NCBI GenBank assembly: GCA_041306075.1
Contig: JBFYKH010000027.1
Span: 4,226-68,225 of the forward strand
Length of the DNA stretch: 64,000 nt
Direction of reading: 5' to 3'
From: Candidatus Altiarchaeota archaeon
Lineage (GTDB): Archaea; Altiarchaeota; Altiarchaeia; IMC4; SCGC-AAA252-I15
Numbering within the stretch: the first letter of the stretch is position 1; each line of letters opens with the position of its first letter. Below, in pieces: positions 8,016 through 26,572 of the stretch. The notes beneath the pieces were generated by a model. The model was not told the origin of the DNA, searched no databases, and saw only the letters and a program-made list of their open reading frames with translations. Both the position numbers and the translations under genes were made by a program.

Positions 8016-8484
8016 AGAGGCGCCTCCTCTCAGGGTCCTTGAACATGGCTATCAGCTGCTGGCTGTACATGTGAACGAAATCTGAGACGTCGGCCACGAG
8101 CGAGTGCATCTGCTCCGAGTCCAGTTTCACGTCAGACGGCTCCATTATCTCCACGGCGGATGGGCCGTACCGGATTATCGCGTTGACGAACCACCGGTAG
8201 TCGTCAGCCACCACCTTCACTTCGGCAACCCCCGAGAATATCGTCATCCCCTTCTTCTCGGCCTTCTCCTTCATTATATCGTACATTTTGACCTCGAGGA
8301 GGCTTATGTGCTCCTCCTTGGCCATCCTGTTGAAGACGGTCGCATCCAGGGCTTTTTTGGCTGATTCAAGCTCGTTTCCCTGGACGCCTATGTAGAGGCG
8401 GGCGAGGATTCCGCCTTCCCCGAGCTTCCCGTCCACGTCCAGGTCCTCGTTGAACGCCTTCGTGAAAATCGGCTTGTCTGCCAT
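7990..8484 (-). CDS. hypothetical protein
   Basis: 164-aa ORF MADKPIFTKAFNEDLDVDGKLGEGG...; balanced composition; no motif recognised. Confidence 0.45.
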   Translation of the reverse strand: MADKPIFTKAFNEDLDVDGKLGEGGILARLYIGVQGNELESAKKALDATVFNRMAKEEHISLLEVKMYDIMKEKAEKKGMTIFSGVAEVKVVADDYRWFVNAIIRYGPSAVEIMEPSDVKLDSEQMHSLVADVSDFVHMYSQQLIAMFKDPERRRLYEEMFGTD

Positions 8485-8607
8485 GGTATGGTTACCTATA
8501 GCCTCCAGGCCCTTATAAGGCGCCGCCCGTATTTTTTACTTGCGCCGGCATATTCTAATACATGGACGCGGACGCTCTGGAGCGCCTGAACTGGGGGCGG
8601 GGCATGG

Positions 8608-9054
8608 ATGGCTGAGCTTCTCGCCGACATCAAGCTCCGCTGGTACGACGACTCCGCGCTGATGGAGGATGAGCCTCGAAGGCTCCTTGAGCTGTTCATG
8701 GACTCGATAGGCGTCACCTCGGACGTGGCCTGCGACGTCATGGAGGTACTCCTCATGTCGAGGGCTAGGGACCTGCCCCTCACCACCGGCGAGGTGAAGA
8801 TGGGGGTTGTGGAGCTGAGGCGCAGGAGGAGCGTGAAGGACCCGGACTTCGGCATGACGGACAGGAACATACAGATTTGGCTGAAATACTTCGAGCGAAT
8901 CGGCTTCCTGGACGAGCTCGGAGGGAAACACCGCTTCAGCGGCAACAAGAGGCCCTCCGACGCCTTCAAGAAGACCAGGGAGGTCGTAGCGGAAAGCCTG
9001 AGGTACAGCGAAAAGCTGGTCGGGAAGCTTGAGGCGACCTACCGGATAAGATGA
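8608..9054 (+). CDS. hypothetical protein
   Basis: 148-aa ORF; stop overlaps the start of the next gene (ATGA at 9051). Confidence 0.45.
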   Translation: MAELLADIKLRWYDDSALMEDEPRRLLELFMDSIGVTSDVACDVMEVLLMSRARDLPLTTGEVKMGVVELRRRRSVKDPDFGMTDRNIQIWLKYFERIGFLDELGGKHRFSGNKRPSDAFKKTREVVAESLRYSEKLVGKLEATYRIR

Positions 9055-9743
9055 ACTGCGGAAGATGCGGCCGGAAGGCCGTCTACGAGCTTAAGTACTC
9101 TGGGCAGGGCCTCTGCGGCAGGCATTTCACCGGCCTTTTCGAGCGGAGGGTTAAGAAGACCATAAGGGACGGCGGCCTCCTAGGGGACTATTCTGTCGCC
9201 GTGGCGGTGTCTGGCGGGGGCAACAGCATGGCGGCGTTGAGGATAATCCAGGGGATACTGGGGGGGAACCCTAAGGCGCGGCTTGCAGCCTGCACGGTCG
9301 ACGGCGACGGGGAGGCGGTTGAGGCTGCGAGACGGTACTCAGGCGTCCTCGGCGTCCCACACCATATCATAAAACGGAGTCGTGGCGGGCCGTTGGATGC
9401 GGTCTGCGGGTGGGCTGTGAGGCGCGGCTATGGGACGGTCGCCTCAGGGGAGAGCCTCGACCGCGTCGTCCGGGACTCGTTTGTCAGGCTCCTGTCCGGG
9501 AAGCCGGGGCCTGTTAAGTCGCGGAGGAAGACGGCGCTGGCGAGGGTCCTGGGGGCGTGTCTTTCAGATGAGGTGGACGCCTACGTCAGGCTGAACGGGA
9601 TACCGCATGTACCGGCTGGAAAGGGGACGGAGTCCATGGGACTTGCCGTCGACAGGCTCCTTGACGCCTTGGAGGAGAATCACCCCGGCATCAAATACCA
9701 GATGCTCCGCTCCCAGGAGGAGTTGGACGGCATCATCGGCTGA
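9051..9743 (+). CDS. PP-loop ATPase with N-terminal zinc ribbon (TtuA/NcsA-like tRNA thiolation family)
   Basis: N-terminus CGRCGRKAVY...CGRHF (Cys4-type finger) followed by the PP-loop variant AVSGGGNSMAAL. Confidence 0.55.
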   Translation: MNCGRCGRKAVYELKYSGQGLCGRHFTGLFERRVKKTIRDGGLLGDYSVAVAVSGGGNSMAALRIIQGILGGNPKARLAACTVDGDGEAVEAARRYSGVLGVPHHIIKRSRGGPLDAVCGWAVRRGYGTVASGESLDRVVRDSFVRLLSGKPGPVKSRRKTALARVLGACLSDEVDAYVRLNGIPHVPAGKGTESMGLAVDRLLDALEENHPGIKYQMLRSQEELDGIIG

Positions 9744-9752
9744 GGGGGGAAG

Positions 9753-10817
9753 TCACGGCTTCGGTTTCCCGTTCCGTCCGAGGAGCCACAGGTGGCCGCC
9801 GAATACGGACACGAATGCCGGTTCGGGCAGAATCCTGTATGCGGCGTATTGGATGGCAAGGAACGCCCTGAAGAGGGGGGAGGTTATCGAGTCCGCCACG
9901 TCGGCTGAAATCCGCTCTCCGCCGGGCAGGACCCGGAACCCGCACGACTCCAGTAGCCCCTTCAGCCCCCGCCTGTTGAACCGCTGGATGTGGCCGAATA
10001 TCCTCTTCCAGTACGTCCTCCCGTATAGTAGTTGGAGCGTGTCGTGGAGGAGGCTCCTCAGGAACGCGCGCTCGAGGGGGGATTTCACGAGCACGTGGGC
10101 GGACACCCGCGCCTGTTCGAGTAAGACCCTCCTTGGCCCTGGCACGTGCTCGAGGACGTCTATGAGCAGGGCGAGGTCGGCTGTGTTGTTGTGGAGGGGC
10201 AGGTATGCGGCATCGGCAACCACCAGGAGGTCCCGGGGGTCCCGGGGGTGGCGGGACAGCTGTATCGGCGACAGGTCCACGAATATCCGCCTTCCTGAGC
10301 CGGTTTTCTTCGACAGCTCCCGCGAGAAGAGGCCGGGCCCGCACCCCATGTCCAGGAGCGTCTTGAACCTCATGCCCGCCGGTAGGAACGCGGTGATGTC
10401 CTTCAGCTTCCGGTCGACGTCCCGGTGCAGTTCGCTGCCGTGGCGGGCTTCGTACTCCCCGTTCATGTAGAAGTCGTAAAGCTCCTTGGGTGCGGCCGGG
10501 TCGACGACGCTCATGTCGTACACGCCGTCTCTGAGCACGTATTCCCTCTTGCAGACGCCGCACGCCAGCCTGCCGCCCTCTGCCGTGAGCTCTGCCTTGT
10601 CTATCGCGTCATAGGGGCAGGCGGCGACGCACTCCATGCACGACACGCACCTGCCCGTGTCGATGGACGCCCGGCCCCCCGCGTCCTTGACCGCACCGTA
10701 TGCGCACGCCCTGGCGCACGCGAAACCGCACGAGCTCTTCCTGCAATTCCCGGTCGCGACGAGGCATTTCGGGCATGCCAGACAATCCGTGAGGGGGGGC
10801 TCGGACATGGCGGACAT
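9753..10817 (-). CDS. fusion protein: 2x[4Fe-4S] ferredoxin domain + class I SAM-dependent methyltransferase
   Basis: N-terminus CLACPKC...CGFACARAC...CVSCMECVAACP (two CxxCxxCxxxCP clusters); then LDMGCGPGLFSREL (MTase motif I) and LIDVLEHVP (motif II/III). Start chosen at MSAMSEPP because the longer upstream ORF extension is Arg/Glu-rich junk. Confidence 0.6.
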   Translation of the reverse strand: MSAMSEPPLTDCLACPKCLVATGNCRKSSCGFACARACAYGAVKDAGGRASIDTGRCVSCMECVAACPYDAIDKAELTAEGGRLACGVCKREYVLRDGVYDMSVVDPAAPKELYDFYMNGEYEARHGSELHRDVDRKLKDITAFLPAGMRFKTLLDMGCGPGLFSRELSKKTGSGRRIFVDLSPIQLSRHPRDPRDLLVVADAAYLPLHNNTADLALLIDVLEHVPGPRRVLLEQARVSAHVLVKSPLERAFLRSLLHDTLQLLYGRTYWKRIFGHIQRFNRRGLKGLLESCGFRVLPGGERISADVADSITSPLFRAFLAIQYAAYRILPEPAFVSVFGGHLWLLGRNGKPKP

Positions 10818-10847
10818 ATATAGCATATAGGGAATTATTAAGTTGAT
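10818..10847. promoter_or_regulatory. compact bidirectional TATA promoter driving two divergent leaderless genes
   Basis: tatatagcatatagggaattattaagttgat lies between the divergent ATGs at 10817 (-) and 10848 (+); each ATG is ~25 nt from a TATA-like element. Confidence 0.45.
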
Positions 10848-12395
10848 ATGCTTCCCGGGCGCGGTTTCATGGGGTTTGGCGGCAATCCCCTTGATAGCCG
10901 GAAGCTCATCGTCCTCATCGCGCTCGCGGCGTTGGCTGCCAGGCTCACGCTCGCGCCCATGCACATAGACTACGGCCGCACCGTGGCGGATGTTCCCAGG
11001 GGTTACGAGTACTGTCGCGTGTCCGACACGCTGCCGTTCGACTTCTACGGCTACGTGTGCCCGGCACAGCGGATGCTCGCGGGCAAGAGCGTCTACGCCA
11101 ACTATTCGATACATCGGGACGGCTACCGGGGATTCCCGTACCCACCCTACCATCCCCTCGCCATGGCTGCGGTCATCAGCCTCTTCGGCCCAGACTTCAT
11201 GTGGATGAAGGTTCCGTCGGCGCTCTTCGACGCGGGAATCGTCGTCCTCGTGTTCCTCATCGCCGAGAGGCTGTTCGACACAAGGCGCGGCAACGTCGCC
11301 GCCCTGGCCTACGCGTTCTCGTACAACTTCCTCATCAACTCCGGCGCCTACGGGAACGACGACCACTATTTCATGTTCTTCGTGATGGCTGGCGTGTATT
11401 TCCTCATCGCTGGGAGGCTGCCATTGAGCTCCGTATCGATGGCTGGTGCCCTCGCGTTCAAGGTCAGCGCCCTACTCTTCCTGCCGCCGATGGCTTTTTA
11501 TATCTGGAGGAGCCGCGGCCTGAAGGCGGTCTTCGCCTACAATGCGCTGGCCATCGTTGTCACGGGAGCCCTCATAGCCCCGTTCTTCGCGTCCGAGGGC
11601 CAGGCCGTCCTGAACCCGTACAAACCCGGTGAGGGCATGCAGATAGACGGCTACGGTGTACTGAACGTCATCAGGCTGACTTACGGCCTCCCCTACCACG
11701 CCGTTCACAGGGAATTGCTCCTCAGGCACAACGACCCCGCCGACCCGATGACGTACGGGGGGACGCATCCGTTCCAAAGGCTCCTGAGGCTCCTTGAGCT
11801 CCCGTTCAACGCCATCGGCTTCCTGATTGCGGCCGTCTACGTGCTGCGTTACAGGATGGCGTCCGCGGAACGGGAGCTCGCCAGGAACTCGTTCGTCTTC
11901 ACACTGGCGATGATGGCCTTCTCTAAGGCGTTCTACGAGCAATATTTCCTGTGGCTGACGCCCTTCCTCATCATCCTTTTCGCGGAGAAGGCGAGGGGAA
12001 TCGGCCGCCTCGAGGCCGCGGGGATGGCGCTGGTGTACGCGGCCTGCCTAGTCCAGGCGGGCGTGTGGACGACGCTCCTGTACAGGCCGTTCGCGGAGCA
12101 TGCCTGGCTTTGGGCCGCCGCGCTTCTTGCCGTGGCGGGCAGCTGCATGATGTACCGGGTCTTCGGCAACGGCCGGTGGCGGACGATGTCGGCGCTGGCT
12201 CTCATCAGCGTATACTCCAACTTTGCGATGAGCCTGCCGTTCATCGTCTTCCATCCGCTGGTGGCAGGTTACATAGGCCTCGATGCGCTCAGGCAGCTCA
12301 CGTTCTACGTCGGCAACTACGTCGCGGGGATTTTCACGCTGTGCATGATGTATGTCACGGCGGGACAGCTGCGCGGGGAAGAGGGGGGGGCATGA
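10848..12395 (+). CDS. polytopic GT-C-fold glycosyltransferase (PMT/ArnT/DUF2029-like)
   Basis: 515 aa with ~11-13 hydrophobic segments and loop motifs typical of the GT39/83/87 superfamily; first gene of the glycosylation island. Confidence 0.5.
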   Translation: MLPGRGFMGFGGNPLDSRKLIVLIALAALAARLTLAPMHIDYGRTVADVPRGYEYCRVSDTLPFDFYGYVCPAQRMLAGKSVYANYSIHRDGYRGFPYPPYHPLAMAAVISLFGPDFMWMKVPSALFDAGIVVLVFLIAERLFDTRRGNVAALAYAFSYNFLINSGAYGNDDHYFMFFVMAGVYFLIAGRLPLSSVSMAGALAFKVSALLFLPPMAFYIWRSRGLKAVFAYNALAIVVTGALIAPFFASEGQAVLNPYKPGEGMQIDGYGVLNVIRLTYGLPYHAVHRELLLRHNDPADPMTYGGTHPFQRLLRLLELPFNAIGFLIAAVYVLRYRMASAERELARNSFVFTLAMMAFSKAFYEQYFLWLTPFLIILFAEKARGIGRLEAAGMALVYAACLVQAGVWTTLLYRPFAEHAWLWAAALLAVAGSCMMYRVFGNGRWRTMSALALISVYSNFAMSLPFIVFHPLVAGYIGLDALRQLTFYVGNYVAGIFTLCMMYVTAGQLRGEEGGA

Positions 12396-13063
12396 AGTAC
12401 TCCATAGTCATACCGGCCTACAACGAGGAGATGAGGATAGGGAGGACGCTGGAGGCCGTGATTGCGTCCTTCCCGGACGCCGAAGTCATCGTGGTCGACG
12501 ACGGCTCGTCGGACGCGACCGCCGCCGTAGCCGAAGCCGCGGGGGCGAGGGTGCTCAGGCACGGCACGAACAGGGGGAAGGGAGCGGCCGTGAGGACCGG
12601 ATTCGCCGCCGCTGCCGGGGGCGTCGTGGGGTTCATCGACGCGGACGGCTCCACCGACATGGCGGACGTCAGGAGGGTCTTGGACGCGGCGGCTGTGGGC
12701 GACGTCGCGATAGCGTCGAGGCGGATGAGGGGCGCGGTGATACCCAGGGACCAGCCGCTCAAGAGGAGGCTGGCTGGGTATGCGCTCAGGTTCCTGCTAG
12801 TGACGCTCATGGACTTGAACGTCCTTGACACCCAGTGCGGCTGCAAGGCCCTCTCCAGGAGCGCGCTCGACGCCGTGCTCCCCGGGATGAGGTGCGAAGG
12901 CTTCGAGTTCGACGTCGAGCTCCTGTACCTCGCGAAGAGGCGGGGATTCACGATAGCCGAGCTGCCCGTCACCTGGACCGACGACGGGGACACCAGGGTG
13001 AACGTCCTCAGGGACGGCCTCAAGATGCTCCGGGAGATACTGCGCGTAAGGCTGCGGGGCTGA
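12392..13063 (+). CDS. GT2 glycosyltransferase (dolichyl-phosphate hexose synthase type, DPM1/AglD/AglJ-like)
   Basis: MKYSIVIPAYNEE...VIVVDDGSSD...GKG (GT-A DxD); ATGA overlap with upstream gene. Confidence 0.7.
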   Translation: MKYSIVIPAYNEEMRIGRTLEAVIASFPDAEVIVVDDGSSDATAAVAEAAGARVLRHGTNRGKGAAVRTGFAAAAGGVVGFIDADGSTDMADVRRVLDAAAVGDVAIASRRMRGAVIPRDQPLKRRLAGYALRFLLVTLMDLNVLDTQCGCKALSRSALDAVLPGMRCEGFEFDVELLYLAKRRGFTIAELPVTWTDDGDTRVNVLRDGLKMLREILRVRLRG

Positions 13064-13100
13064 TGCCATTAAAAAACAAGGCCGCACATAGTAGCTTCCA

Positions 13101-14603
13101 ATGAAGGTGCTGATAGCCAATCCGCCGTGGTTTGACGAAGGCCACGCCGTCCGGGCCGGGAGCAGGTGGCCGCACGGCGAGTTCGACGAGGAGGGCGACA
13201 GGACCGGCTACGCCCCGTTCCCGTTCTTCATGGCTTATGCGGCCGCGGTCCTGGAGGCCGCCGGCCACAGGGTCAGCGTCCTCGACCCCCTGAGCGCGGG
13301 GGAGCCGAGGGGGAAGTTCATATCCGACGTTAAGTCGTTCAGCCCGGACCTGGTGGTGATGGAGTCATCGACCCCGTCAATCAACTACGACCTGAGGACG
13401 GCACAGGCCATCAAGGACGAGGTCGGCTGCAAGGTTGCCTTGTGCGGGCCGCACGTGAGCTCGCTGCCTGAGGACGTCCTCTCCAACAGGCAGGTCGACT
13501 ACGTCTTCATGGGCGAGTACGAGTACACGTGCCGCGACGCCGCGGCGGTCGTCGAAGGGAGGCTGAAGCCGAAGGACGTGCCGGGCCTCGCCTACAGGGA
13601 AGGCGGCATGGTGAAGGTTAACGCCCGGCGGGCGCTCATTGACCTGGACGAGCTCCCCTACCCGGCCCGCCACCTGATGAGGATGGAAAGCTACTGCGAG
13701 CCGTTCATGCAGACGCCTAACGTGCAGCTGATGCAGAGCAGGGGCTGCACCTTCGGCTGCGTCTACTGCCTTTGGCCGCCCGTCATGTACGGGGGCCTCA
13801 ACTTCCGCCACAGGAGGGCGGAGAGCATCGTCGAGGAGTGCAGGCACGTCGTCGAGAAGTACCGGGCGAGGGAGCTTTACTTCGACGACGACACGTTCAA
13901 CCTCGTCCCCGGCAAGGTGGAGGAGTTCTGCAGGGCTTACAAGGAGTCCGGGATAGGGAGGATATGGGGTGCCATGTGCTCGCCGGTGCCCGTTAACCGG
14001 AAGCTCCTTGAGACCATGCACGACGCCGGATGCGAGGCCCTGAAGTTCGGCGTGGAGTCAGGCTCAAGGAGGATACTGGATCTCGCGAACCGGAAGGCGC
14101 AGGACCTCGAGCACGTCGCCAACGTGTTCAGGTGGTGCAGGGAGATAGGCATCAGGACGCACTCGACGTTCATGATTGGGCTGCCGGGGGAGACGAGGAA
14201 GACCGTGGACGAGACGTACAAATACCTGCTCAGGATTAAGCCCGACTCCTACCAGGTCTCCGTGTGCACCCCCCTGCCGGGGACGGCGTACTACGACATG
14301 GCGAAGGCGAAGGGCCTCCTGCACGCGAAGTGCTGGGATGACTACAGCAACATACACTTCATACACGACAAGCCGGTCGTCAGCACCGAGGAGCTCAGCC
14401 AGGCGGACCTGAAGGCGGCGTCCAACTACGCCAACAACTACCTCATATACCAGCTTTACATGAAGAAGGCCTTGAGCGAGCCGAGGTGGACTGCGTTCAA
14501 GCTGAAGGACACCTACAGGAGGCACGGCCTCGGCACCTTCAAGCTCCTCCACAGGGCCGCGTCCAGGGTGGCGAGGAACAGGCTGGCCAAGAAACAATGG
14601 TGA
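13101..14603 (+). CDS. cobalamin-binding (B12) radical SAM enzyme (class B rSAM)
   Basis: N-terminal B12-binding-like domain (MKVLIANPPW..., VMESSTPS) and radical SAM CTFGCVYC (CxxxCxxC) plus QSRGC. Confidence 0.75.
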   Translation: MKVLIANPPWFDEGHAVRAGSRWPHGEFDEEGDRTGYAPFPFFMAYAAAVLEAAGHRVSVLDPLSAGEPRGKFISDVKSFSPDLVVMESSTPSINYDLRTAQAIKDEVGCKVALCGPHVSSLPEDVLSNRQVDYVFMGEYEYTCRDAAAVVEGRLKPKDVPGLAYREGGMVKVNARRALIDLDELPYPARHLMRMESYCEPFMQTPNVQLMQSRGCTFGCVYCLWPPVMYGGLNFRHRRAESIVEECRHVVEKYRARELYFDDDTFNLVPGKVEEFCRAYKESGIGRIWGAMCSPVPVNRKLLETMHDAGCEALKFGVESGSRRILDLANRKAQDLEHVANVFRWCREIGIRTHSTFMIGLPGETRKTVDETYKYLLRIKPDSYQVSVCTPLPGTAYYDMAKAKGLLHAKCWDDYSNIHFIHDKPVVSTEELSQADLKAASNYANNYLIYQLYMKKALSEPRWTAFKLKDTYRRHGLGTFKLLHRAASRVARNRLAKKQW

Positions 14604-15463
14604 ACGAGCCGGGGATTGCGGTCGTCGTTCCCGCATACAACGCGGGTGGGACAATAGACGAGTGCATAGGCTCCCTCCTCAAGCTGGATTACCCGAGGGG
14701 CCTCCTCGACCTGGTCTTCGTTGACGACGGGAGCGCGGACGACACAGCCCCAAGGATTGCCGCGCACCCCGAGTTCAGGCTCCTGCGGCAGGAGCATAAG
14801 GGCCCCGCCGCCGCCCGGAACCTCGGCTACAGGAGCTCGGCCGCCGACGTGGTCGTTTTCACCGACGCGGACTGCGTCGTCCCGCCTGACTGGCTCGCGA
14901 GGCTGGCAAAGGAGCTCGAGTCCGCGGACGTAGTCGGCGGTGGCCTCGCGCCCGCCTCGTTGGACACGGCCGCGGAACGCTTCGAGCAGGCCAGGAGGGA
15001 GAGGCTGTACGGGAGCGCGAGGAGGTTCGTGGACGCCCTCCCGAGCTGCAACCTCGCGTTCAAGCGCTGCGTCCTCGACGAGGTTGGGGGATTCGACGAG
15101 GACTACAGGTGGGCCTCCGCCGAAGACTATGACCTGTGCCGGAGGGTGAAGGCGAAGGGGCACAGAATACTCTACGAGCCTTCGCTGACGGTCGTCCACA
15201 GGCACGTGACAGACTGGGGGAGCCTCACAAGGAAGGCGTACGTCCACGGAAGGGAGATTATGCTGTACAGGAGGAAGAGCGGGGAGGGCGCCGTATTCGA
15301 GGCCTTCAAGCTCGCCGGGAAGGCCATGGCGCTCCCGCTTATTACCGCCGGACGGTATAAGTTGACGATGGCCTGGCACGGGCTCATGTATGAGGCTTAC
15401 GGCCTGGCCGGCCAGGCGGACGGACTCATCAGGTACTACGCGGGGGCTTATGGCAAGCATTGA
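14597..15463 (+). CDS. GT2 family glycosyltransferase
   Basis: MVNEPGIAVVVPAYNAGGTIDEC...VFVDDGSADDT...FTDADC; start overlaps the previous stop (ATGGTGA). Confidence 0.7.
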   Translation: MVNEPGIAVVVPAYNAGGTIDECIGSLLKLDYPRGLLDLVFVDDGSADDTAPRIAAHPEFRLLRQEHKGPAAARNLGYRSSAADVVVFTDADCVVPPDWLARLAKELESADVVGGGLAPASLDTAAERFEQARRERLYGSARRFVDALPSCNLAFKRCVLDEVGGFDEDYRWASAEDYDLCRRVKAKGHRILYEPSLTVVHRHVTDWGSLTRKAYVHGREIMLYRRKSGEGAVFEAFKLAGKAMALPLITAGRYKLTMAWHGLMYEAYGLAGQADGLIRYYAGAYGKH

Positions 15464-16022
15464 CCTCGGATGCGGGCTCAGGAAGGCCGAGGGGGCGTTC
15501 GGAGTGGACATCGCGATGGTCGGGGGGGTGGACGTCGTATGCGACCTCGAAGGCGAGTTCCCGTTCAGGGACGGGTGCATAGACACGGTCTACGCTAGTC
15601 ACTGCATAGAGCACATAGGGGACACGCTGAGGTTCATGGGGGAGGTGAACCGGGTCCTCGCGCCTGGGGGGCGGGCCGTGTTGACGGTGCCCCTGGCCGG
15701 GAGCCCGAACTCCTACCAGGCGGATCACAAGCACTTCTTCAGGGCGAGGGACTTCTACTACTACGACGACGGGAACGCATGCCACTACTACGTGGCGAAG
15801 GCCGGCTCCTTCATGCTCGAGTCCGTCAGGTACGGGCACGGGTACCCGCTGTGGATTCCACCCCTCTGGCTCGTGGGCGCAGCCCTCGCGTCGGTCCTGA
15901 ATGCGGCGCCCGTCTTTCTGAGGGAAGCCTACGAAAACTTCCTCCTGACCTTCCTCCCCATGAAGGAGTTCACCGTGACCCTGGAGAAGCCCGGGACGGT
16001 TAAAAAGCCCGCCAAGGTATAG
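15450..16022 (+). CDS. class I SAM-dependent methyltransferase (Methyltransf_11-like)
   Basis: MASIDLGCGLRKAEGAFGVD (motif I GxGxG) ... LAPGGRAVLT; overlaps the upstream stop. Confidence 0.55.
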   Translation: MASIDLGCGLRKAEGAFGVDIAMVGGVDVVCDLEGEFPFRDGCIDTVYASHCIEHIGDTLRFMGEVNRVLAPGGRAVLTVPLAGSPNSYQADHKHFFRARDFYYYDDGNACHYYVAKAGSFMLESVRYGHGYPLWIPPLWLVGAALASVLNAAPVFLREAYENFLLTFLPMKEFTVTLEKPGTVKKPAKV

Positions 16023-16028
16023 TTAAGC

Positions 16029-17885
16029 ATGTGCGGCATCGTGGGCGCGATGGGCCTTCAGGACAGGGATCTCGTCAGGTCCATGATGGACGCCGTCCGG
16101 CACAGGGGCCCGGACGACAGCGGATTCTATGTCGGCGACGGCGTCAGCCTCGGGCACATGCGCCTAAGCATAATCGACCTTTCCGCCCGGGGCCGCCAGC
16201 CCATGGGCAACGAGGACGGGACAATCCAGATAACCTACAACGGCGAAGTCTTCAACTACAGGCAGTTGAGGGCGGAGCTTGAGGCCGCGGGGCACACGTT
16301 CCTAAGCGACACCGACACCGAATGCCTCGTCCACGGCTACGAGGAATGGGGCCTCGGATTCGTCAGGAGGCTCCGGGGCCAGTTCGCGTTCGGCCTATGG
16401 GACGGCCTCAATCGGAGGCTCGTACTGTGCCGGGACCGCGCCGGCATACTTCCCCTGTACTACGCGGAGTTGGACGGCATAGTCCTGTTCGCGTCGGAGC
16501 TGAAGGCTCTCCTCAGGTACGAGCCGCTGAAGCCGAGGCTCGACTACAGGGCGCTCGACAACTACCTCACGTTCCAGTACGTCCCGGAGCCGGACACCAT
16601 ACTAGAGGGCGTCAGGAAGCTCGAGCCCGCGCACATGAGGGTGTGGGACAGGGAGGGTGTGAGGGACGTCAGGTACTGGGACCTCGACATCGGACGAGTG
16701 TCCGACCTGGGCGAGGCGGAGTGCGTGAGGGAGCTGACAGCCCGCCTCACCGACTCCGTGCGGGCGAGGCTGGCGAGCGACGTTCCCCTCGGCGTCCACC
16801 TGTCCGGCGGCATAGACTCGAGCGCGATAACGGCGGTGGCGGCCTCCCTAATCAAGGAGCCTGTGAGGACGTTCAGCATAGGGTACGGGCATGACGAGGT
16901 CGACGAACTGAAGCATGCGAGGCTCGTCGCCGAACACCTTGGGACCGACCACCATGAGATAGTGGTCGGCGCCGACGAGGTCCTCGGCGAACTCGAGGAA
17001 GTCGTCTGGCACCTGGACGAGCCGAACGGGGACCCCGCGCAGATTCCCGAATATTTCCTCGCCAAACACACTAAACGGCATGTCAGCGTCGTCTTCAACG
17101 GCGGCGGCGCCGACGAGGTCTTCGGCGGCTACAGGGCCTACAGGTACATGGCGGCTGCGGAGAGGCTGAGGAGGTCGGCTCCCGGGCCCCTGAGGCGGGC
17201 GATGAGGCCCCTCAGGAATCTCCCCATGCCGGCCCGGCACAGGCGGTACGTGGACTACGTCAGCTCAGGGGACGAGGACAGGATTTACTGGGGGCAGGGA
17301 CTCATGTTCGGCGACCTGGAGCGCGGGAAACTCTACTCGGCGGGCCTGTGCGCGAGGACGGCGGGGAACGACCCCGCCCTGATGATTAAGAGGCACTTCG
17401 ACGAGAAGGCGCCGGAGCGCCCGGGGATGCTCAACCTCCTCAGCTACGTCGACTTGAAGGGGTGGGTGCCGGGCAACTGCCTGTCTAAGCTGGACAGGGT
17501 GATGATGGCCCACGCGGTGGAGGCGAGGGTGCCGTACCTGGACCACCTGCTCGTCGAGTATGCTATGACGATTCCCCCGCACCTGAAGCTGAAGGGCGGC
17601 GTCGAAAAGCACATACTCAGGAAGGCGATGGCGGGGAGGCTGCCGGAGGCGATAACGAAGAGGCCGAAGAAGGGCTTCGGAGTCCCCACCAACCACTGGC
17701 TGTTCAGGGACGTGAACGACGCGGTCTCGGAGAGGCTCATGAAGTCGAGGTTCATCAGGGAATGCTTCAGGCCGGAGAGGGTGCGCTTCCTCGCGAAGGG
17801 GACGCGGGACTACAGGCATTCGAGCCAGCTCTACGGCCTCCTGGTGCTGGACATGTGGCATGAGAGGTATCTGGGGGGAAGATGA
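16029..17885 (+). CDS. asnB: asparagine synthase (glutamine-hydrolysing)-type amidotransferase
   Basis: MCGIVGAMG N-terminal nucleophile start, ...HRGPDD..., SGGIDSS PP-loop; 618 aa. Confidence 0.85.
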   Translation: MCGIVGAMGLQDRDLVRSMMDAVRHRGPDDSGFYVGDGVSLGHMRLSIIDLSARGRQPMGNEDGTIQITYNGEVFNYRQLRAELEAAGHTFLSDTDTECLVHGYEEWGLGFVRRLRGQFAFGLWDGLNRRLVLCRDRAGILPLYYAELDGIVLFASELKALLRYEPLKPRLDYRALDNYLTFQYVPEPDTILEGVRKLEPAHMRVWDREGVRDVRYWDLDIGRVSDLGEAECVRELTARLTDSVRARLASDVPLGVHLSGGIDSSAITAVAASLIKEPVRTFSIGYGHDEVDELKHARLVAEHLGTDHHEIVVGADEVLGELEEVVWHLDEPNGDPAQIPEYFLAKHTKRHVSVVFNGGGADEVFGGYRAYRYMAAAERLRRSAPGPLRRAMRPLRNLPMPARHRRYVDYVSSGDEDRIYWGQGLMFGDLERGKLYSAGLCARTAGNDPALMIKRHFDEKAPERPGMLNLLSYVDLKGWVPGNCLSKLDRVMMAHAVEARVPYLDHLLVEYAMTIPPHLKLKGGVEKHILRKAMAGRLPEAITKRPKKGFGVPTNHWLFRDVNDAVSERLMKSRFIRECFRPERVRFLAKGTRDYRHSSQLYGLLVLDMWHERYLGGR

Positions 17886-19033
17886 GAGTCTGCATGTTCG
17901 CGATGATGGCCCCCATCCACGCGCTCGGGGGGATGGAGGTGCACTCCCTCGAGCTTGCGAAGGGCCTTGCCGCATCCGGGCATGACGTAACACTCATAAC
18001 CGGCAGGCACCCGGGGGGAATCAGGGAGGAGTCCGTCGGGGGGGTGAGGGTCCGCTACGCCGACGTGGCCGCCACGAGCAGGAGGCCGATGGAGAGGAGG
18101 TGCCTGGACGCCTTCAGGGAGCTTCAGGGGCGGGGGGGATTCGACGTCGTCCACAGCCAGTCCTTCTCCGCATACTATTACGTCAGGGACGGCCTCAAGG
18201 AGAGGTACGGCATACCGCTCGTGACGACGATGCACGGCACCGCCCGCGGAGAGAAGCGGAGCATCCTCAACCAGGGCCTGGACGCGATGACTGTGCCCAA
18301 GTACCTGTTCCACACGTTCAACCACCATTTCAGGACGGTGGATCTCGTGAGGGGGAGCGACGCCGTCATCGCCGTCAACCGGGAGCTCGCCGAAACCATA
18401 CCCGGCGACTTCGGCGTCAGCCCTGACAGGGTGAGGGTCGTGCACAACGGCGTGGACACTGAGAGGTTCAAGCCGGGGACGGCGCCGCCGGCAGGCAGGA
18501 ACGTCCTCAGCGTGTCCCTCCTCCACAGGCAGAAGGGCCTGCAGCACCTGATAAAGGCGTTCGCCCTGGTGGCCGAGAGCTTCCCGGACGCCCGCCTCCA
18601 CATAGTCGGGGACGGCCCGTACCGAGGCGAACTGGAGGCGCAGGCGAAGAGGCTGGGCGGCCGCGTGGAATTCGTGGGAAGGGTGCCTAACGCCGAGCTC
18701 CCAGGCTATTACAACGGCTGCGACGTGTTCGCGATACCGAGCTTCGGCGTCGAAGGCCTCCCGATGGTGGAATTGGAGGCGATGTCCTCCGGGAAACCTG
18801 TAGTGGCCTCGGACATCGGCGGCATACCGTCCGTGATATCCGACGGCGTCAACGGCCTCCTATTCAAGCCGAAGGACGTGGACGGGCTCGCCGAACGGCT
18901 CGTCAGGGTGCTGTCGGACAGGAAGCTGGCGGCCTCTCTAGGGGCGGCCGCGAGGAAGACGATAGTCGACGGCTTCAGCGTCGAGAGGATGGTGGCCGAC
19001 ACAAGCAGGGTCTACGGGGAGGTGGTGGGGTGA
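17882..19033 (+). CDS. GT4 family glycosyltransferase
   Basis: GT-B fold; E-x7-E region ...ELEAMSSGKPVVASDIGGIPSVISDGVNGLL; ATGA overlap with asnB. Confidence 0.75.
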   Translation: MRVCMFAMMAPIHALGGMEVHSLELAKGLAASGHDVTLITGRHPGGIREESVGGVRVRYADVAATSRRPMERRCLDAFRELQGRGGFDVVHSQSFSAYYYVRDGLKERYGIPLVTTMHGTARGEKRSILNQGLDAMTVPKYLFHTFNHHFRTVDLVRGSDAVIAVNRELAETIPGDFGVSPDRVRVVHNGVDTERFKPGTAPPAGRNVLSVSLLHRQKGLQHLIKAFALVAESFPDARLHIVGDGPYRGELEAQAKRLGGRVEFVGRVPNAELPGYYNGCDVFAIPSFGVEGLPMVELEAMSSGKPVVASDIGGIPSVISDGVNGLLFKPKDVDGLAERLVRVLSDRKLAASLGAAARKTIVDGFSVERMVADTSRVYGEVVG

Positions 19034-20157
19034 GGATAGGGATGACCTCAATAGTCTTCGGGAGGCAGGGGGGCATAGCGAGGTACGTCGCCGAGCTCGC
19101 CGGACGCTTCGCGAAGGATAACGAAGTCCACGTGGTCACCTCCAGGCAGGAGGCGGCGGCCGACGGAGTCACAGCCCACATGAGGAGGATAATCTGGAGG
19201 CCGATATCCCTTCAGGTCGCCTCCGCCGCATACGCCTACACGCGCGCCCTCAACATGCTGAGGAGGGATGGAACAATAGAATTGTCTCATGGGCAGGGGG
19301 CGGAGATGCTGTCGCCGGACGTGGTCACCGCCCACAGCTGCCAGAAGGCCGCGGTACGGGCGCTGGCCCTGGAGCGCGGAGAAGCCTGGAGGCTCCTGAA
19401 AAGTTTCGAGCCCAGGAACAACGTGGTCCTGGCCATTGAGGGGAGGAACGTCCGCGACGCGAAGCGGATAATCGCGGTCTCGAAGACTGTGAAGGAGGAA
19501 ATCGTCCGCGAGTACCGGGTCCCGGCGGAGAAGATAGACGTCATTTACAACGGCGTCGACACCGGCGAGTTCGCGCCCGCCAACAGGCTCTCCATGAGGG
19601 AGCCCCTGAGGAGGAGGATGGGATACTCGAGCGAGGACCGGGTGCTCATGTTCAGCGGCTGGGAGTTCAGGAGGAAGGGCCTGAAGCACATAATAGACGC
19701 CCTCACGAACCTCGATGATTCCGTGAAGCTCCTCGTCGTCGGCGGGGCGGACCCGACCCCGTACACGGCGCAGGCGCGGAGGCTCTCGGTCATGAGCCGG
19801 ATCGCGTTCGCAGGCCACCAGGTCGACATGAGGGCGTACTACGCCGCGGCGGACGCGTTCGTCTTCCCGACGAGCTATGAGCCCTTCGGCCTCGTCATAA
19901 CCGAGGCCATGGCCTCGGGCCTGCCGGTCATTACGACCAGGACCGCGGGGGCTGCCGAAATCATAACAGACGGCGTCGACGGCATGCTCCTCTCAAGACC
20001 CGGCGACACAGAGGAGTTGGCGGGGAAGCTGAAGGCGGTCCTGGACGGCGGGGAAGCCGGGAGGATTGGGGCGGCGGCCCGGAAGACCGCCGAAAAATAT
20101 TCATGGGACAGCGTGGCAGAGAAGACGCTCAGTACCTACCGCGACGTCATCCGCTGA
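19030..20157 (+). CDS. GT4 family glycosyltransferase
   Basis: ...FPTSYEPFGLVITEAMASGLPVITTRTAGAAEIITDGVDG (GT4 C-terminal signature); ATGA overlap. Confidence 0.75.
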   Translation: MRIGMTSIVFGRQGGIARYVAELAGRFAKDNEVHVVTSRQEAAADGVTAHMRRIIWRPISLQVASAAYAYTRALNMLRRDGTIELSHGQGAEMLSPDVVTAHSCQKAAVRALALERGEAWRLLKSFEPRNNVVLAIEGRNVRDAKRIIAVSKTVKEEIVREYRVPAEKIDVIYNGVDTGEFAPANRLSMREPLRRRMGYSSEDRVLMFSGWEFRRKGLKHIIDALTNLDDSVKLLVVGGADPTPYTAQARRLSVMSRIAFAGHQVDMRAYYAAADAFVFPTSYEPFGLVITEAMASGLPVITTRTAGAAEIITDGVDGMLLSRPGDTEELAGKLKAVLDGGEAGRIGAAARKTAEKYSWDSVAEKTLSTYRDVIR

Positions 20158-21676
20158 CGCCGTGCGAGAGGACGCCGGCAAACCCGCGCCTGATTGCCGC
20201 CGGCGCCCCCGCCTTCTCCAGGAGGACGTCCGCGATTTCCGCGTCCTCGCGCCTCAGGCCCCTCAAAGCCAGAAGCGCAAGCGAGTACACCGCGAACAGT
20301 GAGGCGGCGGACAGCACCAGCGAGGCCGCCGGCGCCGACACCGCGCCCTTCACGATGTAGGCGGCCGCGAGCGCGACGAGTGATGAGAACACAATCTTCC
20401 CCACCCGCGCCTTGGAGTACGTGAGGCCGACCACCACGCGCACATGACTGTATGATAGCGCGAGTATTAGGAGTGAGGATGCGAGCGCCGCGGCCGCGGA
20501 CCCCGCCATCCCGAACGGGGGGATGAGTGTCAGGTTCAGGATGACGTTCGCCACAGCCCCGGCCCCCAGGTTCCTCGCGTTCACCTTCGGCCTGCCTTCC
20601 GCGTTGATGAGCTCCGTGAATAACGTCGACAGGCCGATGGAGAACGTGCACAGCGAGAGTATCTGCAGGGGCAGCGCCCCTGACGCGTAATCCGGCTTGA
20701 CGAAGAACACCAGTAGCTCCCGGGAGAACGCGGCCACCGCGACCGACAGGGGCAGGAACAGGAGGAAGAAGGACTCGAACAGGTACGACGTGATGTGCCT
20801 TATCCGCTCGAGCCTGCCGGCCCCGAACAGCTCCGAGACCACGGGGGAGAATATCTGCAGGGCCGCGAGGAAGAAGAGGAGGCTCACCGTCGACGCCAGG
20901 TAGGCGACGTTGTAGACTGCCACCTGTCCGGGCCCGGTGAAGTACTGCAGCAGGAATATGGACGTCCAGGCGAGGAGGTTGTTGGCCGTCGTGTAGACGA
21001 CGTTGAAGGCGCCGAAGCTGAAGAGCTTGACTGCCAGGGCGCGGTCGTACGAGGAGCCGAGACCGAAAGTCCTCACCTCATAGGCGGCCAAGAGGAGCGT
21101 GGAGGCGAGGAAGGAGAGGGCTACGAGGCCCATCACCCCATAGACCGTCGACGCCAGGTACGCGGCGGCCGCGACCGCCAGGAGGCGGGCGAGGTTCTGG
21201 AGCATGTTGAACGTCGATGACACCTCCGGCCTCCTGAAGCCGCTCACCACCCCGGCGAACATGTTGCTCACGGAAGTCAATGCGACTACCGACGCCATGA
21301 ACAGGAGGGACGGCCAGTCGATGCCCAGGATACCGGCCGCCCAGGCGATGTAGCAGGCGACGAGTGCGATGAGGAGGAGTAGGGCGTTCAACGCCATGCC
21401 CGTCCATATCGTGGACTCGACGCCGCGCCCGTCGCCGCTTCCCCGGTAGTATGCCACGTACCTTGACACGGACGAGGATATGTGGGGTATGAGGCCGCAG
21501 ACGAACAGGCCCAGGGAGAAGACGAATATGAAGCTGCCGTATTCCTCCCGGCTGAACCAGCGGACGAATATCAGGTGGAAGACGTAGCCGAGCGAGCGGG
21601 AGATTATTAGGAGGAGCATCACTGTCACGGACGCCTTCAGCATCATGTTCCTGAGGGGTGTTTCGTCGTCTGTCAT
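20147..21676 (-). CDS. oligosaccharide flippase (Wzx/AglR-like, MOP superfamily)
   Basis: 509 aa, ~12-14 TM; polysaccharide-biosynthesis-protein-like N-terminus MLKASVTVMLLLIISRSLGYVFHLIFVRW. Confidence 0.65.
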   Translation of the reverse strand: MTDDETPLRNMMLKASVTVMLLLIISRSLGYVFHLIFVRWFSREEYGSFIFVFSLGLFVCGLIPHISSSVSRYVAYYRGSGDGRGVESTIWTGMALNALLLLIALVACYIAWAAGILGIDWPSLLFMASVVALTSVSNMFAGVVSGFRRPEVSSTFNMLQNLARLLAVAAAAYLASTVYGVMGLVALSFLASTLLLAAYEVRTFGLGSSYDRALAVKLFSFGAFNVVYTTANNLLAWTSIFLLQYFTGPGQVAVYNVAYLASTVSLLFFLAALQIFSPVVSELFGAGRLERIRHITSYLFESFFLLFLPLSVAVAAFSRELLVFFVKPDYASGALPLQILSLCTFSIGLSTLFTELINAEGRPKVNARNLGAGAVANVILNLTLIPPFGMAGSAAAALASSLLILALSYSHVRVVVGLTYSKARVGKIVFSSLVALAAAYIVKGAVSAPAASLVLSAASLFAVYSLALLALRGLRREDAEIADVLLEKAGAPAAIRRGFAGVLSHGVSG

Positions 21677-22830
21677 TTTCCGGACAGCTCCGAATAAAGT
21701 GCGATGAGACGGGACGCGTTCTCCCTGAGGCTGAACCTGGACTTCGCGAGCGCAAGGCCCCGGGAGCCCATCCTCCCCGCCTTCGCCCGCCCCGAAAGTA
21801 GCTCCGCCGCCTTAGAGCCGAACGCGCGCACGTCAGGGAACGGCACATGGTAGCCGCTTTGGCCGTCCTCCACAATCTCCGGGACCGCCCCTATGCCGAA
21901 GGCGACGACAGGCTTCCCGAGCGCCATAGCCTCCAGCATCGAGTACCCGAACGGCTCGTACTCGCTCGACATGGCGACGACGTCAGCGGCCGCGTACGCG
22001 TCCTTGACGCTGTCGTTCGGGACGCCCCCGGTGAAGACTGCGTCCTCCACCCCGAGCCGGGACACCGTTGCGTCTACCTTACGCTTCTCGGCGGGAAACC
22101 AGGGGCCGACGACGCAGAGGACCGCATCCGGCACAGTGCGCTTCGCCTCGGCGAACGCCTCCACGAGGAGGTCTATCCTCTTCTGGGGGTGAAGCCGCGC
22201 GACGCACAAAAGGAGCGGCGCCGACTCCGGTATCCCGTGCCCGCGCCTGAAGCCCGTCCCGTCTGCGCCCGAGTACATGGCCGGGTCTACGGAGTTCGGG
22301 ATGACCCTGACTTTACCCCCCGCCCCCGGGTAGACGCCCAACAAAGCCCTCTTACCGGCCTCGGACAGGCAGACGACCGCGTCCGCGCCGTCCACGAGCC
22401 TGGCGCACACAGGATTAGCCGCAGCGAAGAACAGGCGCTCCCTCAATGTCCTAGTCCTCGGCTCGCTCGCCCGATGGTTGATTATGAAGGGTACACCGCT
22501 CGCCTTCGCATGCCTGTAGGCCGCGAGAGTGGCAGGCTGATAATACTCCTCGGACTGGACGACCGACGGCCTGTCCTCTTCCAGGAGGCCCCGGAGATTC
22601 CGGGGGAACACGAGGCCGCCGAGCGAGAACGCCTGGCGGTAGCGCCTGAGCGTGAGCCTCCCCGAAATCTCGGTCTCATGCTCGTTGACGCCGCCCCGGT
22701 AATACTGCATGTGCCTGGCGACGCACGAATAGTTCACGACGTCGATGGACTCGGACAGCGACCCCATCAGGTTCGTCACCGGCCCCCGGTACTCGCTCGT
22801 GTAGTACTGGCAGACGTACCCCAGTTTCAA
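21673..22830 (-). CDS. GT4 family glycosyltransferase (probable TTG start)
   Basis: C-terminal ...SSEYEPFGYSMLEAMALGKPVVAFGIGAVPEIVEDGQSG. The longest ORF (to 22938) would overlap the upstream kinase gene by ~100 nt. A TTG at 22830, 1 nt after the kinase stop, gives M-KLGYVCQYY, a typical GT4 N-terminus. Confidence 0.6.
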   Translation of the reverse strand: MKLGYVCQYYTSEYRGPVTNLMGSLSESIDVVNYSCVARHMQYYRGGVNEHETEISGRLTLRRYRQAFSLGGLVFPRNLRGLLEEDRPSVVQSEEYYQPATLAAYRHAKASGVPFIINHRASEPRTRTLRERLFFAAANPVCARLVDGADAVVCLSEAGKRALLGVYPGAGGKVRVIPNSVDPAMYSGADGTGFRRGHGIPESAPLLLCVARLHPQKRIDLLVEAFAEAKRTVPDAVLCVVGPWFPAEKRKVDATVSRLGVEDAVFTGGVPNDSVKDAYAAADVVAMSSEYEPFGYSMLEAMALGKPVVAFGIGAVPEIVEDGQSGYHVPFPDVRAFGSKAAELLSGRAKAGRMGSRGLALAKSRFSLRENASRLIALYSELSGK

Positions 22831-22831
22831 C

Positions 22832-23842
22832 CTAGGCCTCCCAGGTCTGGAGGCCCTGCATGTCGAAGCTGAAGCTCCTGACCTGGCAGCCGGAATCGGA
22901 CAGGGCCTTCGCGACCTCCTCCTCCCGCCCGGGCTCACAGTAGAATATCATGTGGCCGCCTCCGCCCGCCCCCCCTATCTTCCCCCCGAGGGCGCCGTGA
23001 CTCCTGGCCTTCGAGTATATCCTGTCTATCCGCGTGTTGCTTATCATCGGGCTGAACTTCTTCTTCTGCGTCCAACCCTCGTGGAGTAGGAGGCCGAACC
23101 TGTCGAGGTCGCCCTTCAGGAGCGCCCTGTGCGTCTCCTCGGCCAGCGCCTTCACCCGGTGGAGCGCGTCCACGACGCCCGCCCTCCCGGTCACATACCC
23201 CCTGACCTGGTCGGATATGATGTCGCCGCTCTTCTTACGCTCCATCACATGGACCAGGATGAGGTTCTTCTCGAGCTCGAGGAGGCGGTCCCGCTTCATC
23301 CTCACCGGATTCACACGCACGAAGTCCTCGCCCCTGAACTCTATGTAGTTGAGGCCGCCGAAGACGGAGGCGTACTGGTCCTGCCTGCCGCCCTTGTTGC
23401 CGAGCTCCTCCCGCTCGAGCCTGAAGGCGAGCTCCGCTATCTCGTAGTCCGTCATCCTAGACTCCCGCCGCATGTGGTTGAACAGGCCGATGAGGGAGAC
23501 GAACGCGGAAGCCGACGACCCGAGGCCGCTACGGGGCGGCACATCGCCGCGAAGCCGCATGCTCAAGCCCCGACGTCCCCCGTGCATGCTCTTCACGACC
23601 GCGGACAGGAGGTCCTGCCGGGTGCCGTACCGTATGTCCCCGAGGGACTTGAACATGACCCGCTGGTAATGGCTGTCGTAGAGCGTTATCTCCGGGCTTA
23701 GAGTCAGCTCCAGGCTGCCCCACGCGTACTTGTTTATGGCGGCCGAGACGACGCAGCCGCCGTGCTCCTCGGTGTACGGCGAGACGTCGGTCCCGCCCCC
23801 GCCGAAGCTTATCCTCACCGGCGCCCGGCTGTGGACAATCAT
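22832..23842 (-). CDS. GHMP-family sugar kinase (HddA/galactokinase-like)
   Basis: PPRSGLGSSASAFVSLIG (GHMP ATP-binding motif) and N-terminal APVRISFGGGGTD. Confidence 0.65.
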   Translation of the reverse strand: MIVHSRAPVRISFGGGGTDVSPYTEEHGGCVVSAAINKYAWGSLELTLSPEITLYDSHYQRVMFKSLGDIRYGTRQDLLSAVVKSMHGGRRGLSMRLRGDVPPRSGLGSSASAFVSLIGLFNHMRRESRMTDYEIAELAFRLEREELGNKGGRQDQYASVFGGLNYIEFRGEDFVRVNPVRMKRDRLLELEKNLILVHVMERKKSGDIISDQVRGYVTGRAGVVDALHRVKALAEETHRALLKGDLDRFGLLLHEGWTQKKKFSPMISNTRIDRIYSKARSHGALGGKIGGAGGGGHMIFYCEPGREEEVAKALSDSGCQVRSFSFDMQGLQTWEA

Positions 23843-24951: not shown

Positions 24952-24952
24952 T

Positions 24953-26571: not shown

Positions 26572-26572
26572 A

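Follow-up and report, generated by a model that had tools for sequence, protein, structure and literature searches.

The stretch of DNA analyzed here, 64 kb in length and referred to below as the window, carries at positions 13101-17885 a set of predicted sugar-tailoring genes embedded in a run of glycosyltransferase genes. We see about an even chance that this region is the cytoplasmic tailoring core of an operon for a lipid-linked cell-surface glycan in an Altiarchaeota-like archaeon, working by the mechanism proposed below, in which a radical S-adenosylmethionine (SAM) enzyme would modify a sugar ring and an AsnB-type enzyme would form an amide. The nearest relatives of the window proteins carry the source names 'Candidatus Altiarchaeota/Altiarchaeales'. 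The tailoring set consists of four genes:

13101-14603, plus strand: class B (B12-domain) radical SAM enzyme of 500 aa, with PF04055 and PF02310 matches
14597-15463, plus strand: family 2 glycosyltransferase (GT2) of 288 aa, MftF/EpsD-like (PF00535, E=2e-26), partner of the radical SAM enzyme
15450-16022, plus strand: compact class I SAM methyltransferase of 190 aa (Methyltransf_11, E=1e-9; also Methyltransf_23)
16029-17885, plus strand: AsnB-type glutamine amidotransferase/PP-loop adenylating enzyme of 618 aa (Asn_synthase, E=4e-100, and GATase_7)

An original prediction made for this DNA had proposed the radical SAM, methyltransferase and AsnB genes as a sugar-tailoring set. All three are real genes, recovered at the positions claimed or a few bases away, with domain matches far above chance. 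The GT2 gene between the radical SAM and methyltransferase genes is an addition to the three named in the title of that prediction. Its start was revised to position 14597, giving a 7-nt overlap with the radical SAM stop, and its product scored 167 bits on the MftF model, below the cutoff of 280 bits.

The radical SAM protein matches PF04055 with an E-value of 8e-22 (78.5 bits against a cutoff of 29.5) and the B12-binding domain PF02310 with 49 bits (cutoff 32.1). Its CxxxCxxC motif reads RGC216TFGC220VYC223, with C216, C220 and C223 invariant among 26 homologs, and Cys-x-Trp225 comes after it. The motifs that define the binding site of the cobalamin tail are a glycine on strand β4, Gly-Glu at helix α5 and a downstream Ser/Thr (PMC9204698). 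Conserved in the family are G116 on β4, G138-E139 at α5 and the segment S90-T91-P92-S93. The AlphaFold (AF2) model, with a predicted local distance difference test (pLDDT) score of 91, has a Rossmann domain followed by the barrel. The B12 domain, the cysteine motif and the cobalamin-tail motifs uphold the assignment to class B; cobalamin binding and dependence are predicted from the sequence, and the fold match to AprD4 described below is a reason for caution.

Profile searches placed the radical SAM protein nearest to HpnJ. The best NCBIfam model was HpnJ (TIGR03471) with 246.8 bits, and every other model gave 135 bits or less, including the methylase models PhpK (102), MgmA-type (103), HpnR (61), KedN5 (47) and TsrM (44 bits). 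The score is nevertheless far under the equivalog cutoff of 577.6 bits. Calibration of the HpnJ model with known proteins gave the following values:

True HpnJ (Mycetohabitans): 842 bits
Radical SAM protein of the Lawsonia plasmid: 376 bits
Family members P0058 and P0014: 271 and 262 bits
Window radical SAM protein: 247 bits
MoeK5 ortholog of S. clavuligerus pSCL4: 137.5 bits

A hidden Markov model (HMM) of the family was built from 80 homologous loci in one-per-species genomes. On this model members scored 528-737 bits and the window protein 590 bits, against 309 for HpnJ, 260 for MoeK5 and 228 for BchE. In a neighbor-joining (NJ) tree HpnJ and the Lawsonia protein (92% bootstrap) formed the sister group of the family of the window protein, with MoeK5 and BchE outside the joint clade at 84% bootstrap; the window protein itself fell in an all-archaeal subclade. 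The 'family of 80' did not come out as strictly monophyletic, with sequences from Azospirillum and Eleftheria nesting inside, probably due to long branches; the tree supports only the broader clade that leaves out MoeK5 and BchE. Three active-site-proximal motifs, C-x2-C-L-W-P-Q, FDDDTF and GLPGET, are common to the family and HpnJ and not found in MoeK5. A grouping with cofactor or tRNA enzymes, which would have spoken against the original prediction, was not seen for the window protein.

When the AlphaFold model was compared with the PDB, the best fold match was AprD4 (6fd2) with the aminosugar paromamine bound (E=3e-28, template modeling (TM) scores of 0.75/0.83), followed by TsrM, MgmA, OxsB, CysS and TokK; AprD4 was also the top PDB match by sequence. 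Thus the three nearest characterized enzymes, HpnJ by sequence, AprD4 by fold and MoeK5 at a greater distance, all act on sugar rings, and their chemistries differ. Among 50%-identity cluster representatives 5,907 relatives were found at E≤1e-30, a number that includes neighboring class B families, and members of the family proper (528-737 bits on the family HMM) come from many uncultured phyla of bacteria and archaea. The window protein belongs to a large, widespread and uncharacterized class B family that is sister to HpnJ. Our literature search returned no characterized member of this family, no paper on a B12-domain radical SAM/GT2 fusion and no characterized B12-domain radical SAM enzyme for archaeal cell-surface glycan assembly.

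An indication of the substrate comes from the coupling of the family to glycosyltransferases. Among the 120 best homologs at least 8, including P0058 and P0084, are single-chain fusions with the radical SAM part N-terminal and the GT2 part C-terminal, and their domain order equals the gene order in the window. The fused GT2 of P0058 and the partner GT2 of the window have the same type of best model, an MftF-type GT2. Fusions to class I methyltransferases were found in 2 of the 120, and one more homolog has an N-terminal FkbM methyltransferase fused to the radical SAM part. Gene neighborhoods were surveyed in 81 family loci with iterated local HMMs and a Pfam scan of the +1 neighbors, which superseded single-sequence tblastn searches that were too insensitive. 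A GT2 was adjacent or fused to the radical SAM gene in 21 of the 81 loci, a GT2 or family 4 glycosyltransferase (GT4) lay within 300 bp in 36; of the 57 loci whose flanks were long enough, 39 had one within 3 kb. The most frequent +1 neighbors by Pfam were Radical_SAM (15/69), GT2 (12-13/69) and GT1/GT4 (11/69), and a second B12-domain radical SAM gene adjoined the first in 18 of the 81 loci.

Several further arrangements were seen among the relatives of the radical SAM protein. Some of the members P0285, P0296, P0297 and P0302 have an N-terminal domain of ca. 280 aa, free of Pfam matches, before the B12-radical SAM part, and others are tandem fusions with SPASM-type radical SAM domains of up to ca. 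2,600 aa. Lawsonia intracellularis is an obligate intracellular pathogen. Its 27-kb plasmid 1 (NC_008012.1) encodes the protein that, outside hopanoid pathways, comes closest to HpnJ (376 bits); at 1500-13107 of this plasmid the radical SAM gene overlaps a class I methyltransferase gene and is followed by a second radical SAM gene, four more class I methyltransferase genes and several GT2 genes, which points to a heavily methylated glycan. On a plasmid of Eleftheria terrae (NZ_CP106952.1, 7627-15303) an operon combines genes for a PIG-L deacetylase, an oxidoreductase and a WecB/TagA glycosyltransferase with two tandem B12-type radical SAM genes, an epimerase gene and GT4 genes. This mix of deacetylase, glycosyltransferase and radical SAM functions resembles the HpnK/HpnI/HpnJ logic in a non-hopanoid context.

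In the window the tailoring genes are ringed by genes of glycan assembly, in agreement with the claim that they are embedded among glycosyltransferases:

9753-10817, minus strand: ferredoxin-methyltransferase fusion (Fer4 and Methyltransf_23), divergent from the operon
10848-12395, plus strand: GT-C fold membrane glycosyltransferase, PMT_2-like (PF13231, E=2e-8; PIG-M and ALG3 matches), first gene of the operon
12392-13063, plus strand: GT2, polyprenyl-phosphate sugar synthase-like (PpgS/AglJ/DPM-like; PF00535, E=6e-31)
17882-19033, plus strand: GT4 (PF00534, E=2e-42), its start overlapping the AsnB stop by 4 nt
19030-20157, plus strand: GT4 (PF00534/PF13692), final gene of the operon
20147-21676, minus strand: Wzx-like MOP flippase (PF01943 and MatE), convergent with the operon
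21673-25978, minus strand: GT4, HddA-like GHMP sugar kinase, GT4 and PF00953 initiating transferase, a conserved part of the locus

The gaps between the eight plus-strand genes at 10848-20157 are -4, 37, -7, -14, 6, -4 and -4 nt. Because of this spacing of -14 to 37 nt the genes almost certainly form one transcript and are translationally coupled, which, as judged from gene spacing, ties expression of the radical SAM gene to that of the glycosyltransferase genes. An AT-rich divergent intergenic region of 30 bp lies 5' of the GT-C gene. The start of the first GT2 gene was revised to an ATG at 12392, with an ATGA overlap with the GT-C stop; its product scored 90 bits on the PpgS and 79 bits on the AglJ model of NCBIfam, each under the cutoff. 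It is probably this enzyme that supplies the GT-C enzyme with its lipid-linked donor. The PF00953 gene, for a polyprenyl-phosphate HexNAc-1-phosphate transferase, is located at 24953-25978. The ferredoxin-methyltransferase gene, which had been proposed to flank the set, exists, but it is on the opposite strand and has no homolog beside the cassette in the related loci L001 and L009. Its orientation and lack of conservation rule it out as a member of the cassette.

The gene order is conserved. The arrangement radical SAM-GT2-[slot]-AsnB-GT4-GT4 was found in three relatives with 72-80% radical SAM identity, an Altiarchaeales contig (L001, WJMO01000004.1; also L008) and the loci L007 and L009. 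The orthologs of the two operon GT4 proteins occupy the same positions in L001 with 56% (17882-19033) and 55% (19030-20157) identity. As far as the contigs reach, the Wzx and adjoining GT4 genes are also retained in L001 and L007, and the GHMP kinase, second GT4 and PF00953 genes in L001, where the minus-strand order of 21673-25978 is identical. An ortholog of the partner GT2 lies directly 3' of the radical SAM gene in L001, L007, L009 and a short metagenome contig (L092).

What lies between the partner GT2 and AsnB genes varies. This slot holds the small methyltransferase in the window, a second, more generic B12-radical SAM paralog in L007 (2597-3982), and is vacant in L001 and L009; the short contig L092 shows the order radical SAM-GT2-methyltransferase with identities of 78, 61 and 58%. 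The original prediction listed a separate Rossmann methyltransferase at 15450-16022, and this was confirmed by the match to a class I fold family (Methyltransf_11, 39.1 bits against a cutoff of 21.2) and by motif I, DLGCG, at residues 5-9. Since its full-length homologs have 174-199 aa, the small size is genuine and does not reflect truncation. The window enzyme is no more than 25-36% identical to the methyltransferases beside family radical SAM genes of other phyla. The latter are generic class I relatives, so apart from L092 the link between the radical SAM enzyme and methyltransferases exists only at superfamily level. The small methyltransferase, in a variable slot, would be an optional accessory.

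The AsnB-type protein has the N-terminus MCGIVG, with Cys2 kept, and the intact PP-loop LSGGIDSS. Its best NCBIfam model is the XrtA/PEP-CTERM amidotransferase TIGR03108 (523.9 bits, below the cutoff of 816.9), and the best PDB match is the hydroxyamidotransferase TsnB9 (7ylz) rather than AsnB. It shares with the TIGR03108 paralogs of polysaccharide loci the long form of ca. 620 aa, the N-terminal Cys, the PP-loop and a location in a glycan operon. It differs in the sub-cutoff score, in the absence of an exosortase system from the window and in a glycine, Gly359, at the position that aligns with Glu348 of E. coli AsnB, which we take to be the catalytic glutamate. Glycine was found here in the window protein and its closest orthologs only; of the 120 nearest homologs 115 carry Asp or Glu at this position and one carries Ala, and the MoeF5 ortholog has an acidic Asp. 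Residues 370-387 of E. coli AsnB, in which Lys376, Asp384 and Arg387 reportedly form part of the aspartate-binding segment, are without an aligned counterpart. With Cys2 and the PP-loop intact and Gly at the Glu348 position, the enzyme looks functional yet mechanistically altered. It is probably not a housekeeping asparagine synthetase and is predicted to amidate a glycan carboxylate. The gene is syntenic in L001, L007 and L009. A distance of up to 3 kb from the radical SAM gene is confined to the clade of the window, and 9 of the 81 loci have the two genes within 10 kb of each other. The close spacing being limited to this clade, the link between the two enzymes is lineage-specific. WbpS/WbtH-type enzymes, which form uronamides, are further AsnB paralogs of polysaccharide loci.

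The combination of a B12-radical SAM enzyme and an AsnB-like enzyme within one lipid-linked glycan pathway has a counterpart in moenomycin biosynthesis. MoeK5 and MoeF5 are of these same enzyme classes and are reported to C-methylate and amidate one lipid-linked uronic acid (unit F); by analogy they offer the best precedent for a C-methylated uronamide. In the pSCL4 cluster, documented as a moe cluster (PMC3814723), the AsnB-like gene is 3.5 kb from the MoeK5 gene. The identities to these orthologs are 34% for the window AsnB protein with MoeF5 and 30% for the window radical SAM protein with MoeK5. There are clear differences as well. As described above, MoeK5 is outside the clade of HpnJ and the family, lacks the family motifs and scores 260 bits on the family HMM, below all members, and MoeF5 keeps the acidic residue that the window AsnB protein lacks. 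The moe cluster has its own uronic-acid epimerase, MoeE5; with the radical SAM and AsnB genes both present, the window has neither a uronate epimerase nor a UDP-sugar dehydrogenase gene in 64 kb. Moreover, moenomycin is an antibiotic and not a surface glycan.

In the mechanism that we propose, the PF00953 enzyme would start the glycan on dolichyl phosphate, and the GT4 enzymes and the partner GT2 would extend it. The radical SAM enzyme would cleave SAM at a [4Fe-4S] cluster held by C216, C220 and C223, and the 5'-deoxyadenosyl radical would take hydrogen from the sugar freshly added by the partner GT2, at an unactivated carbon. The resulting sugar radical would most likely gain a methyl group from methylcobalamin to give a C-methyl sugar, or would otherwise rearrange. 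The AsnB-type enzyme would hydrolyze glutamine at Cys2 and adenylate a glycan carboxyl group via the PP-loop, giving an amide, with no asparagine being made. The small methyltransferase may add an O- or N-methyl group. Finally, the Wzx-like protein would flip the finished unit and the GT-C enzyme would decorate it on the outside with the donor that the first GT2 supplies.

The evidence for sugar-ring tailoring by the radical SAM enzyme is good. Among the individual outcomes C-methylation is the likeliest, at a probability somewhat short of even, on account of the base rates in class B, the methylation-themed fusions and neighbors, and the pairing of MoeK5 with the AsnB-like MoeF5. A number of observations weigh against the proposed scheme. 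With no characterized member in the family, the chemistry of the radical SAM enzyme is unreadable from sequence; the literature lists HpnJ, the nearest characterized relative, as a non-methylase, and AprD4, closest by fold, does not methylate. About one third of the surveyed loci are without a GT2 or GT4 inside 3 kb. The AsnB-type protein scored 504 bits on the generic asparagine synthase model TIGR01536, above the cutoff of 267 bits, and the loss of the Glu348 equivalent could mean an altered or reduced adenylation activity. Of the predicted C-methylation, the sugar-acting nature of the nearest relatives and the moenomycin precedent speak in its favor, and the closer kinship to HpnJ, with MoeK5 outside the clade, speaks against it.

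The supply of an acid sugar is a further difficulty. No UDP-sugar dehydrogenase or other uronic-acid gene was found in the 64 kb by tblastn with the Ugd protein of L001 or by Pfam scans of the large open reading frames (ORFs). In L001 a Ugd gene adjoins the radical SAM gene. Directly 5' of the cassette, at 574-9904 of that contig, Ugd is accompanied by a formyltransferase, a DegT aminotransferase, a GT2, an epimerase/dehydratase and two PMT_2 GT-C genes, a set that resembles the bacterial 4-amino-4-deoxy-L-arabinose (Ara4N; ArnABCT) pathway for lipid modification, in an archaeon. Because of these Ara4N-like companions the L001 Ugd gene is ambiguous evidence for uronic acids. Of the uronic-acid amidation originally predicted, the amidation is favored by the fixed place of AsnB in the operon of relatives, and the uronic acid, with its gene missing, has no support from the window.

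The final carrier of the glycan is a difficulty as well. The traits of an Agl locus present here are a PF00953 transferase, four GT4 and two GT2 enzymes and a Wzx-like flippase, without AglB or a sequon-rich target. No AglB/STT3 match was found among the window ORFs scanned against Pfam, and the gene may lie elsewhere in the genome. A gene for a Methanococcus-type S-layer protein of 930 aa (3955-6747, minus strand) neighbors the glycan locus, but only 2 N-X-S/T sequons occur in this protein (5.5 ± 2.1 in shuffled sequences), which is unexpected if it is the main N-glycan carrier. The absence of AglB from the scanned ORFs and the sequon-poor S-layer protein both count against the scheme, and they make the 'S-layer N-glycan' named in the original prediction an assumption that is unsupported by the window. 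A methylated and amidated glycan is plausible in the light of the moenomycin precedent and is not established.

The main competitor of C-methylation is an HpnI/HpnJ-like module, in which the GT2 would add a hexose to a hydroxyl group of a lipid-linked glycan or lipid and the radical SAM enzyme would contract its ring to a five-membered carbocycle. The product would be a cyclitol ether, like bacteriohopanetetrol cyclitol ether or calditol, instead of a methylated sugar. We consider this doubtful, though a serious rival, because HpnJ is the nearest relative and likewise works with a GT2. In a network drawn at a stringent threshold HpnJ falls into one cluster with Fom3 and MoeK5. It is listed as a non-methylase, and a knockout led to the proposal that it contracts a hopanoid-borne glucosamine ring; both HpnJ and Cds are proposed ring-contracting radical SAM enzymes (PMC9204698, PMC13459092). 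Apart from the wide margin in TIGR03471 score, the tree position and the common motifs, the proteins agree in two-domain architecture and length, with 33% identity, and the hpnJ gene directly adjoins that of its own GT2, HpnI, which makes the sugar substrate of HpnJ on a lipid carrier. On the other hand, 33% identity is too low for transfer of chemistry within this superfamily, the score of the window protein stays far under the HpnJ cutoff, and the activity of HpnJ itself has been deduced solely from the knockout. HpnJ is found with hpn genes, squalene-hopene cyclase and HpnK; the window has no hopanoid genes, and an HpnK-type deacetylase was not found in the 81 loci. The partner GT2 gives only a partial match of 33 bits to HpnI, and the hopanoid order, GT2 then radical SAM, is the reverse of that in the window, where the pair is part of an archaeal operon with multiple glycosyltransferases. 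The class I and FkbM methyltransferase fusions and the five methyltransferases of the Lawsonia cluster also point to a methylation theme. It is unlikely that the radical SAM-GT2 pair is a widespread, unrecognized counterpart of HpnI/HpnJ in which a hexose is placed and then contracted to a cyclitol unit.

Other radical reactions on the sugar, such as an AprD4-like 1,2-diol dehydration, an epimerization or an oxidation, with a Rossmann domain that is perhaps not cobalamin-catalytic, are decidedly improbable. AprD4 is the radical SAM 1,2-diol dehydratase of apramycin biosynthesis and acts on a sugar ring. The window protein shares with it the layout of a Rossmann domain, a partial TIM barrel and a C-terminal helical part, and the top rank of this enzyme in both fold and sequence comparisons with the PDB argues for such chemistry. 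Several class B members are non-methylases (PMC9204698), and AprD4 is placed among the 'unrelated enzymes' outside the B12-dependent set (PMC12931638). However, the identity is 23%, the AprD4 model of NCBIfam gave just 118 bits against a cutoff of 500, and no AprD3-type partner reductase was seen. The window family also retains the Gly-Glu and β4 Gly cobalamin-tail motifs and Cys-x-Trp, which set it apart from AprD4.

An incidental association, with AsnB as a housekeeping asparagine synthetase and a radical SAM enzyme acting on a membrane lipid, cofactor or protein, would agree with the TIGR01536 score, with the name 'asparagine synthase' given to AsnB relatives by their sources and with the methylation of tetraether lipids by MoeK5-related archaeal B12-radical SAM enzymes (bioRxiv 10.1101/2023.10.20.563219), but is highly improbable given the translational coupling of both genes to glycosyltransferase genes, their conserved positions in four genomes, the physical fusion of the radical SAM family to GT2 domains and the lack in AsnB of a Glu348 equivalent and an alignable Asp-binding segment. 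A housekeeping AsnB was set aside as the main interpretation on the conserved synteny, the glycosyltransferase coupling and the Gly at the Glu348 position.

Outside the glycan locus some other features of the window were recorded. It contains one 5S rRNA and two tRNA genes. The 5S rRNA gene (898-1013, minus strand) lies inside a mechanically called ORF at 871-1797 (plus strand), which is therefore probably spurious. The overall G+C content is ca. 64%, and two segments are lower, 26001-28000 (0.52) and 54001-58000 (0.47-0.48, compared with ca. 0.64); these may be acquired DNA. The first begins right past the glycan locus and holds a tRNA-Gly gene (26877-26948). A membrane protein of 658 aa encoded beside tRNA-Met (31945-33921, plus strand) is sulfatase/LTA-synthase/phosphoethanolamine-transferase-like and could decorate a surface polymer with a phospho-substituent. 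The gene at 35528-38233 (plus strand) encodes a DUF3160 protein of 901 aa (698 bits).

Radical SAM enzymes that tailor sugars have been described for the antibiotics gentamicin, moenomycin and apramycin and for hopanoid head groups, and the tailoring of a lipid-linked glycan by a radical SAM enzyme together with an amidotransferase is of a known kind. What is undescribed in the literature searched is this radical SAM family, its systematic coupling and fusion to GT2 enzymes and its presence in archaeal surface-glycan operons. For the lineage of the window a surface glycan is predicted that carries at least one radical-derived modification and one amide. For the family, the fused or adjacent GT2 provides a built-in hint at the substrate of the radical SAM enzyme. 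The mechanism of HpnJ/Cds-type contraction is described as unexplored in reviews. With HpnJ as the nearest relative, expression of the window pair, or of one of the natural fusions of radical SAM and GT2 parts, could reveal a new sugar modification as well as the HpnJ-type mechanism. If the pair were indeed a counterpart of HpnI/HpnJ, many uncultured archaea and bacteria would have acid-stable, ether-linked pseudo-sugars in their surface glycans or glycolipids, and the family, including its natural single-chain fusions, would provide a tractable system to reconstitute HpnJ/Cds-type ring contraction.

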